Shown in pieces: positions 895 to 17,590 of a stretch of 23,822 bases of DNA. Numbering within the stretch: position 1 is the stretch's first letter; every line of letters begins with the position of its first letter. The DNA is from a virus (lineage: Duplodnaviria; Heunggongvirae; Uroviricota; Caudoviricetes): the IMG/VR virus record IMGVR_UViG_2671180283_000029, positions 1 through 23,822 of that record; one strand, 5' to 3'. The translations under genes and the position numbers were made by a program. The notes under the pieces were generated by a model. It was given only the letters and a program-made list of their open reading frames with translations. It made no database searches and was not told the DNA's origin.

Positions 895-1191
895 ATGAAC
901 AATTACCCAATGCAAGTTATGGTTGACCAAGAAACTATGAATTGGCTTAATGACCTGAACAGGTCGGGATTTAATATCTATTTCATGCATTGTTTTGAAG
1001 CATCAACGTATATTGACAAGCATATAATCAACGAAATTAAACTTGGTGACTTTGTTCACAAACTGGAAGTAACAGACCCAGACTACAAGAGATTTATCAC
1101 AAGCGAATGCAACCGACTTGATTTAAGCCCGGAGCAATTATTGAAGCTGAATGTATTCTTGACATTAAACCCTTACAGTGAGGTGATGTAA
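895..1191 (+). CDS. hypothetical protein (98 aa)
   Basis: ORF with AAGGAG SD 8 nt upstream of the ATG. Confidence 0.5.
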   Translation: MNNYPMQVMVDQETMNWLNDLNRSGFNIYFMHCFEASTYIDKHIINEIKLGDFVHKLEVTDPDYKRFITSECNRLDLSPEQLLKLNVFLTLNPYSEVM

Positions 1192-1268
1192 TGACGCTCG
1201 TTATTTTATGGACAGCTTTAGGTTTATTATGTGGTTGCCTGATTGCTAACGCAGCTAACAGAAATTGA
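1191..1268 (+). CDS. possible small hydrophobic peptide (25 aa, MTLVILWTALGLLCGCLIANAANRN)
   Basis: ATG at 1191 overlaps the last base of the upstream TAA stop; strongly hydrophobic; below the ORF-track size cutoff; could be spurious. Confidence 0.25.
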   Translation: MTLVILWTALGLLCGCLIANAANRN

Positions 1269-1292
1269 TGTTATCAGATTGTTAAAAAGCTG

Positions 1293-1321
1293 TTGACAAA
1301 TAACCTTAAGCATGACATAAT
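1293..1321 (+). promoter_or_regulatory. near-consensus sigma70-type promoter
   Basis: TTGACA at 1293-1298, 17-nt spacer, CATAAT at 1316-1321, reading rightward into a ~380-nt non-coding leader. Confidence 0.5.
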
Positions 1322-1490
1322 TTTAATTATAGGGAAGAGCAATTCTTCCTAAAATCATATTTTCAATAATCCGATGGATGGATATTCTGAGTTGGAAAGG
1401 TGCAATGCTTTTCGTCATGGCCTTTCAGTTTAGTCTGAGAGGCTATCTCAAAAAGTCTTTGTTCATTCGTTATTGAATCCTTACAGCTTT

Positions 1491-1520
1491 GCCCTAATCA
1501 TGAGTTAGGGCGTTTTCTTT
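1491..1520 (+). terminator. intrinsic terminator-like hairpin in leader
   Basis: GCCCTAA / TTAGGGC 7-bp stem, 7-nt loop, followed by GTTTTCTTT. Confidence 0.4.
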
Positions 1521-1581
1521 AAGAGTTTTAAGCAGAGCTTTTAAAGAAAGTTTTTCCTGAAACTTCGTTAACGTAACCTCC

Positions 1582-1617
1582 AAAGCCCTTCACAGATTAT
1601 GTTTAGGGCTTTTCTTA
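1582..1617 (+). terminator. second hairpin with T-rich tail in leader (terminator or attenuator)
   Basis: AAAGCCCT / AGGGCTTT 8-bp stem with 15-nt loop followed by TCTT; weaker than the first hairpin. Confidence 0.3.
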
Positions 1618-1711
1618 ATAGAGCATCTTTAATCAATCGTTAAGTCATCTTCTAAGTGTATTGGCGTTGAAGGTGCTCTATTAAGAAATAACCACTTAGA
1701 GGAAAATTATA

Positions 1712-2422
1712 ATGACAAACGATTTATATATTAACGGCAGAAAGATTGATAGCTTCGGGGACTGGTCACCACAGACTGAACATCCAGCTATCGCTATTCA
1801 GCGTAAAGAACACGATGAAAGAATTAAGCTTGAGCAAGAAATCCGAATGTCACCAAAGGAAATTACCTTTGTGGCTCCTGAGCCTCAAGAAATGCCTGAT
1901 ATCTGCAAAAGTGAAGCACTATTTAATCTTGAGCGTGAATATTACCCACAGTTAAAAGAACAGCGCCTTAGACTAGATGACGCTTACAGCAAAGTTACCC
2001 TGATGCAATCAGCTATTGAGCCGTCAGAATTTGAGATTCAGGATGAATTGTCACAGAAACCATTTGTCTATTACCAATACGAAGACAATGATGGTTTTGG
2101 TATTTATCCAGAAAACATCCCAGCCGCGATTAGTAGTCTTCCTGAGGGACATCGAATTGTGAAGATGGTTAAGGCATCAAGAGGTGCTGGTCAGTTTATT
2201 TACATGACCAATAAGAGCGATGAAGAACTCTGTGAACTTGCCAGGCAGAACATCTTGGCATCACGTAACAAGCAACTTGAAAATGTTAAGTTGTGTCTCT
2301 TAAGAGAGCTTCAGGCTATGAAAGACCTTATTTCTGCATATGAAACGCAGAAGAAGATTGCTATGCAGGCTGATATTGAGCAGTTAGTGAAGATTTCAAC
2401 GAAGTACGCAAAGGTGCTTTAA
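1712..2422 (+). CDS. hypothetical protein (236 aa), acidic with a coiled-coil-like C-terminus
   Basis: ORF with GAGGAAA SD upstream of the ATG; no recognisable motif. Confidence 0.55.
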   Translation: MTNDLYINGRKIDSFGDWSPQTEHPAIAIQRKEHDERIKLEQEIRMSPKEITFVAPEPQEMPDICKSEALFNLEREYYPQLKEQRLRLDDAYSKVTLMQSAIEPSEFEIQDELSQKPFVYYQYEDNDGFGIYPENIPAAISSLPEGHRIVKMVKASRGAGQFIYMTNKSDEELCELARQNILASRNKQLENVKLCLLRELQAMKDLISAYETQKKIAMQADIEQLVKISTKYAKVL

Positions 2423-2445
2423 CTATGAATTAAAAGAGGTGATTA

Positions 2446-2655
2446 ATGTTTGAAGAACGTTTAGAGACTATTCGGTCTGTTTGTGAAAACTTAAAGTTAC
2501 AAGCCAATCCAGCCTTAAGAATTAAAAACAAACGTCAAGTTATCACCTCACACAAACCAAAAACACGCAAGATTCCAAAGTGGTGTATCGACCGTATCCC
2601 TTCTGATGCCCAAATCATAGGTGAAACGGAATTACATTATCTTGTCAGACATTAA
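2446..2655 (+). CDS. hypothetical basic protein (69 aa)
   Basis: ORF with AGAGGTG SD 4 nt upstream of the ATG. Confidence 0.4.
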   Translation: MFEERLETIRSVCENLKLQANPALRIKNKRQVITSHKPKTRKIPKWCIDRIPSDAQIIGETELHYLVRH

Positions 2656-4966: not shown

Positions 4967-4978
4967 TTTAACGGTGTT

Positions 4979-5042
4979 CTACGTGAATAAAGCAAAGTTA
5001 ATACCCACACCAAAAATTATTTTTCACGTAGCTCACGCTTAA
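4979..5042. repeat. conserved 64-bp intergenic element, copy B
   Basis: Same three blocks and same spacings as copy A; lies between the TMP-like gene stop and the 5123 gene. Confidence 0.6.
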
Positions 5043-5911: not shown

Positions 5912-7431
5912 ATCTCTACTACATCAACATCTATTAAACCCCTCTCAGTGACTTCAGAAAGCGACTGTATAGCCTCTGTAACGTCCTCTGAGGGGTTTTC
6001 TGTTATTGATAGGGTGATTGACTTACTATTGTGAAAAGTCACTTTACAGCGACGTTTAGCAGTATTTAAAACGACCTCTTTAACAGCACTTTTGATTATC
6101 AGTTGTGCTTCAATCCTTCCCGCCTTTGTAGTCAAGTCACAATCGGACAAACAACCCACATCAATAGATTTAAGGCGTTGTGTCTCCTTCTCGATATCAG
6201 CATCAACCTGTGATAGCTCACCTTTTAACTGTTTTAGTTTGCTGGTAATAGCTGACAAATCTTCAATTTCAAGTGATAGCTGTACCAGCTTTTCAATATT
6301 GCTTGAGATGTGTTCACGGTGTAGCCTCAACATATCTATGGTATTCGTCGTATCGCTATCAAATCGGTCAAGACGAGATAGCAGAGTAAGCAATGTACCA
6401 TCGGTTTGCTTACGTGAAAGTCCTTTAGCACTACAACGGTTTTCATTACGAAGAGGACAACGATAAATCCCGCTTCTTGTATCGCTAAAGCCTGTGATAA
6501 TCAGAGCATGACCACATTCAGAACAACGGATAACACCTTTGAAAAGATTCACAGCCATTGGCTTATCTGAAGCAGGTTTTCTACCGTAACGAGCATATGA
6601 TAGTTGCTGGACTTTGTAGAATGTTGTTTCATCTATAATTGCAGGATAATAATCAGCTATCTCTTCACAGCCTTTAGGTGTGAAGTAACCAATTACAGAG
6701 CGATTTTTCAGAAGGTCTTGTACTGAGGTTTGACCAAATGAACCCGCTTTATATTGGTTAAGCGTCTGGTGACCTTCATCATTAAGAGTCCTGACAATCT
6801 CCCAGATAGACTTACCCTCTAACCGTAGCTGAAAGCACCTCTTCACAGTTTCTACCTTCTCAGGTATCACAGAGAAGCTTTTACGGTCATCATTAAGCTT
6901 AAGCCATGCAGGACAACGTTTAGAAATCTTGATACCTTCAGAGATGAGTTCTTTTTTACGGTTCCATGCAGCTTGTATACGCTCAGACTTCCTCAAACTC
7001 TCCTCATGCGACCGCTGCATTATCAGAATGCTTTTAATCAGAGCTAACGGGTCTTTAAGAGATTCTCGTGTGTAATGTTCACCATCGGACAAGGTGACTA
7101 CATCTACACCAGAGCGAAGAATGTTTCGTAATAGCTCACTTGCTCGGTCTACGTTCTGGCGTGACAAACGGTCAAGAGATTCTATCAAGAGCGTATCACC
7201 AGCTTTAACAAGCCCTTTCTCGATAGCGGTTAAGAAGTCACCTAAGCCACCTTTCAAGTGCTTACCAGTGAATCCACTCACACCTAAATCACGGAAGGAT
7301 AAATCTTGGTCAAGGTAGTACTCAGGATGAGCCTTAAGCCAATCAGTGACCATCTTAGATTGTCGGCGTAATGAATCACCTCGGGATTGCTTCTCAGATG
7401 AAAACCTGATGTAAGAAATGGCACGTTTCAT
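5908..7431 (-). CDS. large serine recombinase (serine integrase), 507 aa
   Basis: N-terminal resolvase-type catalytic domain (YIRFSSEKQ with candidate nucleophilic Ser, [11 protein letters not shown]), then recombinase domain, Cys-rich zinc-ribbon-like segment (CSECGH...[11 protein letters not shown]) and C-terminal coiled coil; GAGGTG SD; sits at the element edge next to the junction. Confidence 0.9.
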
Positions 7432-7483
7432 TGTTCACCTCAAAACTGATGCCTAGATTGTATCGCTTTAGGTGGTGTATTTA

Positions 7484-7921
7484 AACGTGTCTAATAAAAA
7501 TCACCCGATTAACGCCGCGCTGATGTAAACCGCGATTAAGCGTTTGTTCCTCTTCCCCTTTGGCGAAAAACTGTGGATGGCGGACTTCCACACCATAATT
7601 AAATTCGCCAGGGAGAGAATCGAGAAAATGCCAAAGCGCAGGCAGCTCCCGTGGGCCGAATGTGGCAGGCAGTTGCAGCCAGTATTGCCCAATGCGCGGA
7701 GCCAACGGTGACATGCGGGTCAAAAATTCAGTCACTAAATCATCGCAATGTCGTAATGCTGCCTGATGCGAAATGGTCGCCGGAAACTTAAAACAGAAGC
7801 GGAAGTCATCTGTGGTCTGTTCACGCCAGCGCAGGACAACCTCGGGTTTCGGCAGGGCGTAAAGCGTGGTGTTGCCCTCCACGCAGTTAACATGACGGGT
7901 ATTAAGGATTAACTTACTGAT
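7484..7921 (-). pseudogene. yecE: internal fragment of a chromosomal DUF72-family gene (yecE-like), truncated at both ends
   Basis: Reading frame open from 7921 to 7484 with no credible start (track start is GTG); the protein matches my recollection of E. coli YecE across its central ~130 residues, with the C-terminal tail (IFIRHV) diverging near 7500 and the 5' end running into the integrase 3' end; GC visibly higher than the left element. Identity is from memory, not a search. Confidence 0.55.
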
Positions 7922-9222
7922 TTTAATAAGCCTCTGGTGTCACTTTGGTGACTATGGGGCATCATTGGGACATAATCTGTCAGCTTCTGATTCAGCATTG
8001 CGATCTGTTCTGCATTGCTGTCAGTCATCCATGCTCCGTATACATTGAATACCATCTGGGCACTTGCATGGCCCATCTGGCTGGCAATGAAGCTTGGGTT
8101 TGCTCCGGCAGATAATGACCAGCACGCATAAGTGTGTCGTGACTGGTATGCCTTTCGATGCCTGATCCCTGCACGCTTAATGGCTGTTTCCCATGAGTCA
8201 CCTACAGAATCGACTTTGTAGACAAAACCTACCTGTTCGCTTTTTCTAACCACTTGAGGGTTAAACACGAAAGTACATTCATGGTTCACTGAACGTCCAT
8301 ATTCACGTAGTTGCACCTTGATGTTGTACTGCTTACCCAGTCTTGTCATTTCAGCCTGATTTTTCAGGACACTGATAGCGGGCTGGATAAGGTGCACAAC
8401 CCTGTTTGTGCTTGCTTCAGTTTTCGGTAGAGTGAACTCACCAAGTTTCGTATAATTGCGCCTGATGGTAATTGTTCCTGCCTTCAGATCGATATCTTCC
8501 CAGGCCAGGGAGACCAGTTCACCGTGACGCATTCCTGTGTACACAGCCAATGACCACAGGTTTTTCGTCTGCTGATGTCGGCAAGCATCTATCAGGCGAA
8601 TAAATTCGTCACGAGTTAGCGGATCTGGCTCTGCCCTGGCTCTTTTAAGAGGCTTAATTCCCTGGAAGGGATTTGCTTCTAAGTAACCGTGATCTGCAGC
8701 AAACTGAAACATTCCAGCGATTGTCGTCATGTAATAATTTACAGTAACGACGCTCCGTCCTTTTGCTGCTGCTTTGTTTTTCGTTGAATTCTGATACCCG
8801 GTCAGCAAATCTTTCCTGATATACAGCAATTCCTCTTTGGTTACCGATGACACCAGTCTACTGCCTCCAATTTTCGGAACCATCGTTCTTGCAACGGATT
8901 CATAGCGATTGAATGCATTTGCAGAGATTTCCATTCGTTTCAGATCCAGCCACTTTTCTTCAAGTTTCTTCACCGTAATTTCTTTTTTACTTACCCCAAA
9001 AGCCTGAAGGTTGGGGGAGTCAGGGAACTGTGCAGCATAATCAAAGCTTCCTGTGCGGATGGCAAAACATACTGATGTCCGCAGTTCCCCGGCGATCTTC
9101 CTGTTCTTGGCAGTGTCAGGGACACCAAGATTTTCCCTGACACGTTTACCTTTAAAATTAAACCAGATGCGTAATGTGCCGCCGTGGTTTTCGACGCCTG
9201 TTGGATATTTGACTTTATCCAT
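7909..9222 (-). CDS. int: phage tyrosine integrase (437 aa)
   Basis: C-terminal catalytic region with Arg/His/Tyr pattern (GMRHGELVSL, SRHTYACW, MGHAS, VYGAW); GGAGG SD; adjacent to the chromosomal gene remnant and followed by an excisionase-like gene. Confidence 0.9.
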   Translation of the reverse strand: MDKVKYPTGVENHGGTLRIWFNFKGKRVRENLGVPDTAKNRKIAGELRTSVCFAIRTGSFDYAAQFPDSPNLQAFGVSKKEITVKKLEEKWLDLKRMEISANAFNRYESVARTMVPKIGGSRLVSSVTKEELLYIRKDLLTGYQNSTKNKAAAKGRSVVTVNYYMTTIAGMFQFAADHGYLEANPFQGIKPLKRARAEPDPLTRDEFIRLIDACRHQQTKNLWSLAVYTGMRHGELVSLAWEDIDLKAGTITIRRNYTKLGEFTLPKTEASTNRVVHLIQPAISVLKNQAEMTRLGKQYNIKVQLREYGRSVNHECTFVFNPQVVRKSEQVGFVYKVDSVGDSWETAIKRAGIRHRKAYQSRHTYACWSLSAGANPSFIASQMGHASAQMVFNVYGAWMTDSNAEQIAMLNQKLTDYVPMMPHSHQSDTRGLLKSVS

Positions 9223-16256: not shown

Positions 16257-16919
16257 ATGATCATTTCAAGACCAAATATTGATTCTGCAATTTCGGGACG
16301 TTACACTGTCTCCGCACCTTATAAAGCGGGTGCCGGGGGTCGCAGCCCGGAATTGTCAACGGCGATATATGACGCGCCAGCGTCTTTTTTATCGTCCGCG
16401 CTCACGCACGCCAGAATTATGGTGGGCTGGGCAGGGGAGCCGAAAGGCTCGCCGGTCTCCGTTGACGCCGGTACTGCGAACCCTGTTCAGTCTGCCACCA
16501 GTGAGTTTCGCAGCTCCGGTGGTGGAAGTTTTCCACAGTCAACGGAGGCTGCCATCATGGCTACTGTCCCAACTTCCCCATACCTGAAAATTGAAGTTGT
16601 CAACGGCAAGGCCGTTATTTTCTCCCTGCATGTTGCCTGCCACTTTAAGCGAATGCACCAGAACATCGTTGACAAAATCGAGTATCTGAACTGCTCACGC
16701 GAGTTTTTTACCCGCAATTTCATACCGGGTACTTATCACATCTACGGTGACTCCCTGCGTGGTTATTACATCACCCTTGATGGTCTGATGATGCTTCAGC
16801 TTGGGTTAAGTCTGCGCACAATGCGGTACTACGAGAGCTGTATTGAAGCATTCCATGAGGCTGAAACCGTCCAGGGTCACTCCGCGTTCCGTCGTAATCA
16901 ACGGGAGGTGCACCTATGA
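16257..16919 (+). CDS. Rha-domain protein with Gly/Ala/Pro/Ser-rich N-terminal extension, paralog 1 (220 aa)
   Basis: Segment KIEVVNGKAVIFSLHVACHFKRMHQNIVDKIE ... YYITLDGLMMLQLGLSLRTMRYYESCIEAFHEAE matches the Rha-domain pattern; ~90-aa low-complexity N-terminus; no SD before the 16257 ATG, so the start is uncertain. Confidence 0.55.
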   Translation: MIISRPNIDSAISGRYTVSAPYKAGAGGRSPELSTAIYDAPASFLSSALTHARIMVGWAGEPKGSPVSVDAGTANPVQSATSEFRSSGGGSFPQSTEAAIMATVPTSPYLKIEVVNGKAVIFSLHVACHFKRMHQNIVDKIEYLNCSREFFTRNFIPGTYHIYGDSLRGYYITLDGLMMLQLGLSLRTMRYYESCIEAFHEAETVQGHSAFRRNQREVHL

Positions 16920-17590
16920 TCCGCCACCAGCTTATTGATTCTGCAATTTCGGGACGGTACACTGTCCAAGCACCTTATAAAGCGGGTGCCGGGATTGGCG
17001 TCCTGGAAATGTTATCGGCGATATATGACGCGCCAGCGTCTTTTTTATCGTCTGCGTCTGCGCACACCCAAATTATGGTGGGCTGGACGGGGGCACCGAA
17101 AGGTGCGCCGGTTTCCGATAACGCCGGTTACGCCAACCCCGTTCAGTTCACCACCAGCGAAATTGGCGTTTCCGGTGGTGAAGGTAATTCACTGTTATCG
17201 GAGGCTGCCATCATGGCTACAGTCCCAACTTCCCCATACCTCAAAATCGAAGTCGTCAACGGCAAGGCCGTTATTTTCTCTTTGCATGTTGCCTGTCATT
17301 TCAAGCGCATGCACCAGAACATCGTCGACAAAATCGAGTATCTGAACTGCTCGCGTGAATTCTTCTCCCGTAATTTCATTCCGGGTACTTACCACGTGTA
17401 TGGCGATTCCTTGCGTGGTTATTACATCACTCTTGATGGCCTGATGATGCTTCAGCTTGGGTTAAGTCTGCGCACAATGCGGTACTACGAGAGCTGCATT
17501 GAGGCATTCCATGAAGCTGAAACCAGCCTGAATCATACAGCTTTCCGCTGTAATCAATGGGAGGTGCGCCCATGATTCGCCGCCTCGTTA
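16277..17590. repeat. tandem direct duplication (~660 bp x 2) spanning the two Rha-like paralogs
   Basis: Copy 1 (from ~16277) and copy 2 (from ~16933) align colinearly with high identity, including the downstream SD-ATGA junction (GGGAGGTGCACCTATGA vs GGGAGGTGCGCCCATGA). Confidence 0.8.
16916..17575 (+). CDS. Rha-domain protein with low-complexity N-terminal extension, paralog 2 (219 aa)
   Basis: Same architecture as paralog 1; GGGAGG SD; ATGA overlap with paralog 1. Confidence 0.55.
   Translation: MIRHQLIDSAISGRYTVQAPYKAGAGIGVLEMLSAIYDAPASFLSSASAHTQIMVGWTGAPKGAPVSDNAGYANPVQFTTSEIGVSGGEGNSLLSEAAIMATVPTSPYLKIEVVNGKAVIFSLHVACHFKRMHQNIVDKIEYLNCSREFFSRNFIPGTYHVYGDSLRGYYITLDGLMMLQLGLSLRTMRYYESCIEAFHEAETSLNHTAFRCNQWEVRP

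Follow-up and report, generated by a model that had tools for sequence, protein, structure and literature searches.

The 23,822-nucleotide (nt) stretch of tailed-phage DNA analyzed here (IMG/VR record IMGVR_UViG_2671180283_000029, hereafter the window) carries two mobile elements. Positions 1 to ~7480 are the right part of an ~11-kb island with a G+C content of 37–44%, which is inserted in, and splits, the Escherichia coli gene yecE. The island, complete copies of which were compared (L157, 2284–13433; L001, 8394–19618), encodes in order a Dam-type methyltransferase with a helix-turn-helix tail, an O-like replication initiator, four to six orphan small open reading frames (ORFs), a 25-amino-acid (aa) peptide followed by a leader, 236-aa and ~69-aa orphan proteins, a strong terminator, tape-measure and Dit-like proteins, and a large serine recombinase (serine integrase). 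The leader is thus located between the replication and small-ORF module and the tail-gene module. It consists of a promoter block, a 5' domain containing the hairpins SL1 and HP2 and an invariant core, the terminators T1 and T2, and a long hairpin that precedes the gene of the 236-aa protein. The comparisons described below indicate that the leader is a conserved, structured, non-coding RNA that acts as plus-strand RNA.

A blastn search with the leader region (1191–1711) matches 477 of 5,426 complete E. coli genomes, always in the chromosome and with 68–91% identity; the resulting frequency of ~9% uses the leader region as a proxy for the island. We fetched 13 of the matched E. coli loci, added two more species through a protein-anchored scan, and collected 12 virome and 116 metagenome loci by exact searches with a conserved 16- or 19-mer. 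In all, 121 loci contain the promoter and the core, 108 of them also include the downstream gene, and 98 leaders are distinct. Most of the metagenome loci were found through the core sequence itself, and only the 16 BLAST-derived loci are unbiased. The region always lies at the same place within the island, and the synteny is constant: an ORF of ~100 aa is followed by a small peptide, 320–520 bp from promoter to ATG, and a gene for a protein of ~236 aa. A blastn search of the leader against 50,697 phage records returned no match.

Table 1 Features of the leader and its flanking genes in the window
Feature	Position	Strand	Description
Gene of 25-aa single-helix hydrophobic peptide (MTLVILWTALGLLCGCLIANAANRN)	1191–1268	+	Last gene of the upstream small-ORF operon
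Conserved promoter block	1269–1321	+	−35 TTGACA (1293–1298), 17-bp spacer, TG, −10 CATAAT (1316–1321)
SL1	1332–1350	+	7-bp hairpin, 3–5 nt after the predicted start; two-sided changes in 3 of 7 pairs, one-sided in 4; 90.6% of cells paired
Invariant core (GAAAGGTGCAATGCTTTTCG)	1395–1414	+	Identical in 15 of 16 BLAST loci; invariant in alignment A1
HP2 (ATGGCCTTTCAG / CTGAGAGGCTAT)	1417–1446	+	12-bp hairpin; two-sided changes in 6 of 12 pairs, many G-C/G-U alternations
Predicted intrinsic terminator T1 (GCCCTAA / TTAGGGC + GTTTTCTTT)	1491–1520	+	Terminator scan, ΔG −10.2 kcal/mol
Predicted intrinsic terminator T2 (AAAGCCCT / AGGGCTTT + TTTTCTT)	1582–1617	+	ΔG −10.0 kcal/mol; conserved in related loci
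Long hairpin	1611–1688	+	Inverted repeat with 22-nt arms, 1611–1632 and 1667–1688, 91% complementary
Ribosome-binding region of the 236-aa gene	1693–1714	+	CACTTAGAGGA at 1693–1703, ATG at 1712; target of the loop anti-Shine–Dalgarno sequence
Genes of 236-aa and 69-aa orphan proteins	1712–2655	+	Same synteny in all fetched loci

The promoter agrees with the sigma-70 consensus at 11 of 12 positions and has an extended −10 TG. No other site in the first 6 kb of the window is a better sigma-70 match, and the same holds for a complete copy of the island. An A-tract next to the −35 hexamer (AAAAAGCTG; 1284–1288) resembles an UP element, and three TGTT(A/G) repeats are placed 11 bp apart at 1269, 1280 and 1291, both as read from the sequence. 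The mean pairwise identity of the block is 90.7% in 16 loci collected without the use of the block as a search key, compared with 50–73% in the neighboring segments (67% in the peptide gene). The near-consensus promoter noted in the preliminary description is therefore confirmed, and it is the best-conserved segment of the region. Conservation covers the 17-bp spacer and reaches ~25 bp beyond the −35 hexamer on its upstream side, and the block is present once per island. Since this conservation extends beyond the needs of a plain promoter, a protein probably binds at the block. Transcription is predicted to start at ~1328–1330.

Both terminators have a GCCCT/AGGGC stem, formed by residues 1491–1497 and 1505–1511 in T1 and by residues 1582–1589 and 1605–1612 in T2. 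The loop of T2 is longer, and because it exceeds 8 nt, T2 was missed by the terminator scan. GCCCT/AGGGC hairpins with T-rich tails are present in all 98 distinct leaders, one in 32 and two in 66, with a mean ΔG of −10.7 kcal/mol and 5.9 T in the next 9 nt. The two terminator-like hairpins that had been noticed at these positions are thus found again as conserved predicted terminators. Loops and flanks differ between the terminator modules, and in some loci T2 is replaced by other GCCCT/AGGGC modules. The distance from just after the −10 hexamer to just past the first terminator is 188–284 nt (82 distinct sequences), and the window predicts short RNAs of ~190 nt, ending at T1, and ~290 nt, ending at T2. 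In one leader variant (CCAAAGCCCTAAACATAATCTGTGAAGGGCTTTT), the whole T2 hairpin is inverted, with the stem and the flanking A and T tracts kept, as expected for a two-way terminator.

The 5' arm of the long hairpin has the T-tract of T2 as its base, and every leader has such a hairpin directly after its last terminator. The hairpin occurs in four sequence versions, which are unalignable outside the stem and have stems of 17–27 bp. An RNAalifold consensus of nine representatives of the four types contains 17 pairs, eight of which show compensatory double changes and several of which include G-U; none of the inner 13 pairs is broken. The G-U pairs indicate that the hairpin acts as plus-strand RNA. 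A third, imperfect stem had been placed at ~1621–1682. It is present, but larger than described.

The apical loop of the long hairpin carries an anti-Shine–Dalgarno sequence, TCTTCTAAGTG, at 1648–1658. In each of the 90 distinct sequences, the loop is perfectly complementary to the Shine–Dalgarno (SD) region of the following gene, over 6–12 nt and over at least 7 nt in 89 of them. The loop and SD sequences of the window, which represents type 1, are UCUUCUAAGUG (1648–1658) and CACUUAGAGGA (1693–1703); the corresponding pairs are CUCUUCUAAGU and ACUUAGAAGAGG in type 2, UUCACCUCU and AGAGGUGAA in type 3, and AUUCACCUC and GAGGUGAAU in type 0. Loop and SD region co-vary between the hairpin types, so that the mean duplex energy is −17.7 kcal/mol, compared with −13.4 kcal/mol for cross-type pairs. 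Relative to shuffled loops, the mean z-scores of the pairing range from −2.4 to −4.8. On at least three occasions, an unrelated sequence has taken the place of the hairpin while preserving both its stem and the loop–SD match. Such a co-varying complement is the signature of a translational operator that masks a ribosome-binding site, and this is the function we predict for the third stem, which had been overlooked in the preliminary description.

The 22-nt arms of the window hairpin fall within the length range of RNase III substrates (~20 bp or more of nearly continuous double strand), and the long stem would suit this enzyme as a substrate. The leader of the lambda N gene contains nutL and then an RNase III-sensitive hairpin that governs N translation. 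The island leader resembles it as a phage 5' untranslated region in which a long hairpin of RNase III length, just upstream of the SD sequence, would control the first gene. The two differ in that the loop of the island hairpin itself carries the anti-SD sequence and the island terminators are located upstream of the gene, not downstream. No boxA/boxB pair or N-like protein was found for the island leader.

The leader is a mosaic of freely assorting modules: an optional extra 5' hairpin, which some loci carry upstream of SL1, then SL1, alternative linkers, one of which carries (GATG)2–5, an optional 28-nt hairpin insert, the core, HP2, (CATT)1–3, and TTGAAyCC. SL1 is probably a 5' stabilizer. 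An action of SL1 on the loop of the long hairpin was considered and rejected, as SL1 variants and hairpin types assort independently. The G-C/G-U alternations in HP2 fit an RNA read from the plus strand, not a DNA element. We evaluated the helices of the 5' domain in an alignment of 92 distinct sequences (A1), in which SL1 and HP2 were counted together with a third, uninformative helix. In this alignment, 90.5% of the cells are paired, compared with 44–59% when the partners are slid, and nine pairs show two-sided changes, compared with one to three in the slid controls. The covariation score of 0.191 exceeds that of the slid controls (≤0.085) and was reached by none of 500 shuffles. The third of these helices, CUUUUCG/CRAAAAG, which would extend HP2, was discarded, since it shows no informative variation and has a C·A mismatch in 61 of the 92 sequences. 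The plus strand folds with z-scores of −4.5 (1329–1522) and −6.8 (1523–1714), and none of 200 shuffles was as good; the z-score of the minus strand of 1329–1522 is −2.7.

The core occurs once in the window and is able to form a 7-bp stem capped by a GCAAU loop. Its invariance next to hairpins that covary points to sequence-specific recognition, and the core may therefore be recognized by a protein or an RNA.

The region 1269–1711 contains no ORF of 60 aa or longer on either strand, in agreement with the preliminary description. No ORF and no upstream ORF is conserved across the 98 distinct leaders. Translation of the leaders yields 129 different peptides of at least 20 aa, none of which is common to more than six, and a protein-coding leader was rejected. 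Attenuation through a leader peptide was likewise rejected, as the ORF beginning with the invariant AUG of the core varies from 5 to 58 aa and has scattered stops. A search of 1150–1800 with the 4,227 Rfam models returned only sub-threshold chance matches at E-values up to 10, the best of 20 bits against gathering scores of 54–118, and no model reached its gathering score at the leader in the window or in 13 related loci. As a positive control, the same search detected C4 RNAs at 16415–16502 and 17071–17158, as well as isrK, in the neighboring prophage. The earlier suggestion of a riboswitch-like element thus found no match among known families, and the leader is a new RNA family without a counterpart in Rfam. 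Tandem Repeats Finder detected no array at 1150–1760 with a minimum score of 30, and the leader contains no tRNA. Enrichment of CsrA-type GGA motifs was rejected as well, as their number in the window leader equals the expectation from base composition (by a hand count only).

DNA identity to Felix O1-like phages is ~90% over most of the Dit-like gene and over the C-terminal half of the tape-measure gene, and the island contains no capsid or terminase gene. The island is an apparently undescribed, phage-satellite-like element related to Felix O1-type phages, not a lambdoid prophage. Given the gene order, the Felix O1-type tail genes, and the absence of capsid and terminase genes, the leader is positioned at a module boundary of a satellite-looking element. 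Literature searches returned nothing relevant on the island, on the leader RNA, or on its sequence strings. Some islands (L006, L007, L008, L012, L013 and L015) have a gene for an HNH endonuclease among the upstream small ORFs, which is absent from others, a pattern in line with the freely assorting modules of the leader.

We consider it probable, on comparative grounds, that the element is the leader of a late operon with a double lock, in which transcription termination is combined with masking of the ribosome-binding site. The near-perfect sigma-70 promoter would fire strongly at ~1328–1330, and the transcript would begin with the protective SL1, followed by the modular 5' domain with the invariant core and HP2. 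Most polymerases would stop at T1 or T2, leaving a stable non-coding RNA of ~190 or ~290 nt. Transcripts that read through would fold the 17–27-bp hairpin, the loop of which would pair with the SD sequence and block translation of the first gene. The two locks would hold off the 236-aa and 69-aa genes and, past the further terminator, the tape-measure and Dit genes. Release would occur upon activation of the island, most plausibly by infection with a Felix O1-like helper, which is the natural candidate for the trigger because the island carries Felix O1-type tail genes. The release factor would both suppress termination and open or remove the hairpin, and cleavage of the stem by RNase III is one candidate for the latter step.

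Several observations weigh against the double lock. The transcription start site, termination and its efficiency, and repression by loop–SD pairing are all predictions, as are the releasing factor and its trigger. T1 and T2 are only moderate, with ΔG of about −10 kcal/mol and interrupted U-tracts; some read-through is therefore expected, and it could be substantial. Within the island, nothing was identified as an antiterminator, an RNA-binding protein or another releasing factor. The invariant core plays no role in the model. When the 5' domain was searched for with a covariance model, each island gave a single copy and the complete Felix O1 genome gave none (best E-value 1.4). The long-range helix that closes the minimum-energy fold of the window leader, formed by TCAATAAT/(GATG)n with (CATT)n/ATTATTGA, is not conserved: matched partners have an energy of −8.47 kcal/mol, compared with −8.57 kcal/mol for permuted ones, and the copy numbers of (GATG)2–5 (1373–1384 in the window) and (CATT)1–3 (1461–1468) vary between leaders without correlation.

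A more specific version of the release step would be antitermination of the lambda Q type, in which a factor loads at the promoter with the help of the conserved spacer and a promoter-proximal pause, after which the polymerase resists T1, T2, and the terminator at 2683–2718. The preliminary description had likened the leader to lambda pR'-tR', and the layout bears this out. As in the lambda late leader (pR'-qut-6S RNA-tR'), a strong, constitutive-looking promoter precedes late genes, a short RNA would extend to a terminator located ~190 nt from the predicted start and before the tail genes, and read-through is needed for expression. The spacer between the −35 and −10 hexamers is conserved far beyond promoter needs, a −10-like hexamer (TTTAAT, TATATA or GGTAAT, read from the sequence) is present in all three variants of the initially transcribed sequence, and the tape-measure gene is cut off from the first two genes by another strong terminator. 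However, no ORF of the island matches the Q family or another antiterminator in Pfam or PHROG, and the 98–107-aa protein encoded just upstream lacks a zinc-finger pattern. No use of Q-type factors is known for Felix O1-like phages, and antitermination alone would not open the SD lock. Unlike the lambda leader, to which it has no sequence or Rfam similarity, the island leader combines an extensive modular 5' domain with a second, translational lock, and it is located in a satellite-like island. We therefore regard control by a Q-type factor as improbable.

The terminator at 2683–2718, between the 69-aa gene and the tape-measure gene, is a strong intrinsic terminator with a 15-bp stem, a T6 tail, and a z-score of −4.2. 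The leader promoter can therefore reach the tail genes only through antitermination; otherwise, these genes need a separate promoter. The 236-aa protein (gene at 1712–2422) has no match in Pfam, PHROG, NCBIfam or PADLOC and none by tblastn against phages, and a comparison with the sequences of the PDB returned only two insignificant chains (E-values 0.19–0.32). Its AF2 model consists mostly of long, coiled-coil-like helices, with a pLDDT of 63.5, which is too uncertain for a fold search. Many homologs are named 'transposase' at NCBI; no model was found behind this name, which is probably a propagated error.

The order of a constitutive promoter, a non-coding RNA, a leaky terminator, and a protein gene is shared with ToxIN-type loci, and control of the downstream gene by two locks suggests a harmful product. 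The locus could accordingly be imagined as a type III toxin-antitoxin or abortive-infection module, in which the leader RNA is an antitoxin made in excess by virtue of the leaky terminator and the 236-aa protein is the toxin. We consider this very unlikely. The RNA lacks the tandem repeats of ~34–36 nt that make up the antitoxin arrays of ToxIN, CptIN and TenpIN, and the 236-aa protein, with its predicted coiled-coil-like helices, matches neither ToxN nor AbiQ. Its gene is always directly upstream of the tail genes, where assembly factors are usual, and in this context, too, the locus is unlike ToxIN.

It is possible, though in our judgment less probable than the double lock, that the main product is a small RNA that ends at T1 or T2 and acts in trans, with the core as a seed for helper or host transcripts and the terminators mainly setting the 3' end; such a function could coexist with the lock in cis. 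A strong promoter, a 5' hairpin, and an intrinsic terminator form the anatomy of an abundant, stable RNA of ~190 nt, and the 20-nt core is invariant while the neighboring hairpins only covary. Conservation is highest in the promoter, the core, and the terminator stems, as reported for SviR, a small RNA of ~200 nt from the PLE satellite of Vibrio cholerae, in which the promoter, seeds, and terminator are conserved (bioRxiv 10.1101/2022.04.08.487710). SviR is induced by helper infection and its targets have been mapped (bioRxiv 10.1101/2022.04.08.487710). The predicted island RNA is likewise non-coding and of about the same length; SviR is encoded by a satellite of a virulent myovirus, the island RNA by a satellite-like island. 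In contrast to SviR, the island RNA is known from its sequence only, and its sole candidate target match is weak. No sequence relation between the two was seen, though no search was aimed at one.

That match involves 14 of the 20 core bases (GTGCAATGCTTTTC), which are identical to the plus strand of Felix O1 (record positions 60067–60080; L158, 37143–37156) and form a 14-nt perfect complement to the mRNA of ORF216, a phrog_5180 protein of unknown function. A match of 14 nt was reached by 2 of 1,000 shuffled genomes. However, the site is matched at 13 of 14 positions in E. coli phage ASO1A and at 12 of 14 in Mooglevirus, is lost in Kolesnikvirus, and drifts like the rest of the gene. The leader has two further exact matches of at least 14 nt to Felix O1, 17 nt at 1530–1546 and 14 nt at 1518–1531, and with three in total, such matches are not rare for AT-rich sequence. 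Moreover, most of the core is drawn into a stem in the fold. We treat the ORF216 match as a lead only; all three matches were down-weighted after a control with all 20-mers. The 17-nt stretch at 1530–1546 is part of the spacer hairpin after T1 and is perfectly antisense to Felix O1 ORF86 (L158, 524–540; blastn-short E-value 0.001); most related leaders differ from it at one base, and the match is probably due to chance in AT-rich sequence.

Targets within the island find little support. The longest complement of the core in two island copies is 8–9 nt, the level of the shuffled control. An 11-nt complement, a length reached by 1 of 100 shuffles, exists for another conserved stretch in the ECONIH2 island, but the island of the window has no counterpart. 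As no island complements beyond these were found, an arrangement of the P4 seqA/seqC type is not supported. The CI RNA of P4 and the C4 RNA of P1 and P7 (RF01695, clan CL00128) resemble the island leader in the combination of a satellite, a constitutive promoter, a short stable regulatory RNA, and early termination that silences downstream genes. They differ in that their covariance model has no match at 1150–1800 or in the 13 related loci, and the island has no flanks complementary to the core.

The most far-reaching proposal, to which we assign a low probability, is that virulent Felix O1-like myoviruses have an undescribed family of satellites in E. coli, with the short RNA as its regulatory RNA. 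The core would be a seed or protein site for sensing or manipulating the helper, for example through the ORF216 transcript, and the double lock would release the tape-measure and Dit module only during helper infection.

The peptide gene upstream of the promoter is located as the preliminary description had given it, with a start that overlaps the stop of ORF 895–1191 as TAATG. Its own SD sequence lies inside the upstream gene, and the arrangement indicates that the peptide is translationally coupled to that gene. In 85 loci, which represent 54 distinct coding sequences, the ORF is exactly 25 codons long, with the consensus M[GT]L[IV][IV][AL]WT[LA]LGLFVGCW[VM]GNTVNKN and a hydrophobic stretch from residue 3 to 19. 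Its pN/pS is 0.32 at a pS of 0.50, and the other two frames are stop-rich. In 21 loci, a different hydrophobic peptide of 21 aa (MELVIICFVLIGMIAGASIKV) occupies the same slot. The fixed length, the purifying selection, and the replacement by another hydrophobic peptide argue for a small membrane peptide selected at this position, and the 25-codon ORF is, by these sequence criteria, a genuine small membrane-protein gene. The earlier suggestion of a small membrane toxin or regulatory peptide thus holds as far as a selected product shorter than 60 aa with one membrane helix is concerned, but not for the layout of a type I toxin, since the start and the upstream stop overlap and no gene for an antisense RNA was observed. 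The only nearby promoter-like site on the minus strand (1734–1706) is not conserved in related loci. In L157, a second strong promoter (TTGACA-17-TAAGAT with TG; 5936–5964) precedes the small-ORF operon, and the window starts just past the corresponding place. Transcription from this promoter would also meet T1 and T2.

With the leader, the heavily studied E. coli gains a well-supported non-coding RNA element, of which there are ~100 distinct natural variants. It is a new combination of known devices, joining tandem attenuating terminators to an anti-SD sequence in the loop of a repeatedly replaced long hairpin. The design is unusual in that a near-perfect promoter would be neutralized twice, by termination and by a loop that acts independently to mask the ribosome-binding site, and the natural hairpin replacements amount to ready-made compensatory mutants. 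The larger surprise is the island around the leader, which may represent a new type of satellite and the early-to-late boundary of which is marked by the leader. If the island is indeed a satellite of virulent Felix O1-like phages, the leader would be the obvious site for sensing helper infection. Felix O1-like phages are used in the typing and biocontrol of Salmonella and E. coli, and a common chromosomal element that responds to them would therefore be of practical interest.

Two copies of a 68-nt repeat, 78% identical to each other, are located just upstream of the tape-measure gene (2730–2797) and the Dit-like gene (4975–5042). Each copy folds as a hairpin (GCTACGTGAAA...TTTACGTAGC), and the first contains a CUCAC stretch that is able to pair with the SD sequence of the tape-measure gene. 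No such spacer is present in Felix O1, where the tape-measure gene directly adjoins the Dit gene. The repeats may be further translational or promoter elements of the island.

The right-hand remnant of yecE (7481–7902) is followed within a few bases by a tyrosine integrase gene with an Arm-DNA-binding domain (7909–9222), with which a separate prophage of higher G+C content starts at 7909. Two mobile elements therefore lie back to back at the locus. The neighboring prophage carries two tandem pairs of isrK-like and C4 antisense RNAs, at 16314–16502 and 16970–17158 (Rfam scores of 59–83 bits). Each pair is located inside or beside ORFs of ~220 aa, as a duplicated control module of immunity or anti-repressor type.

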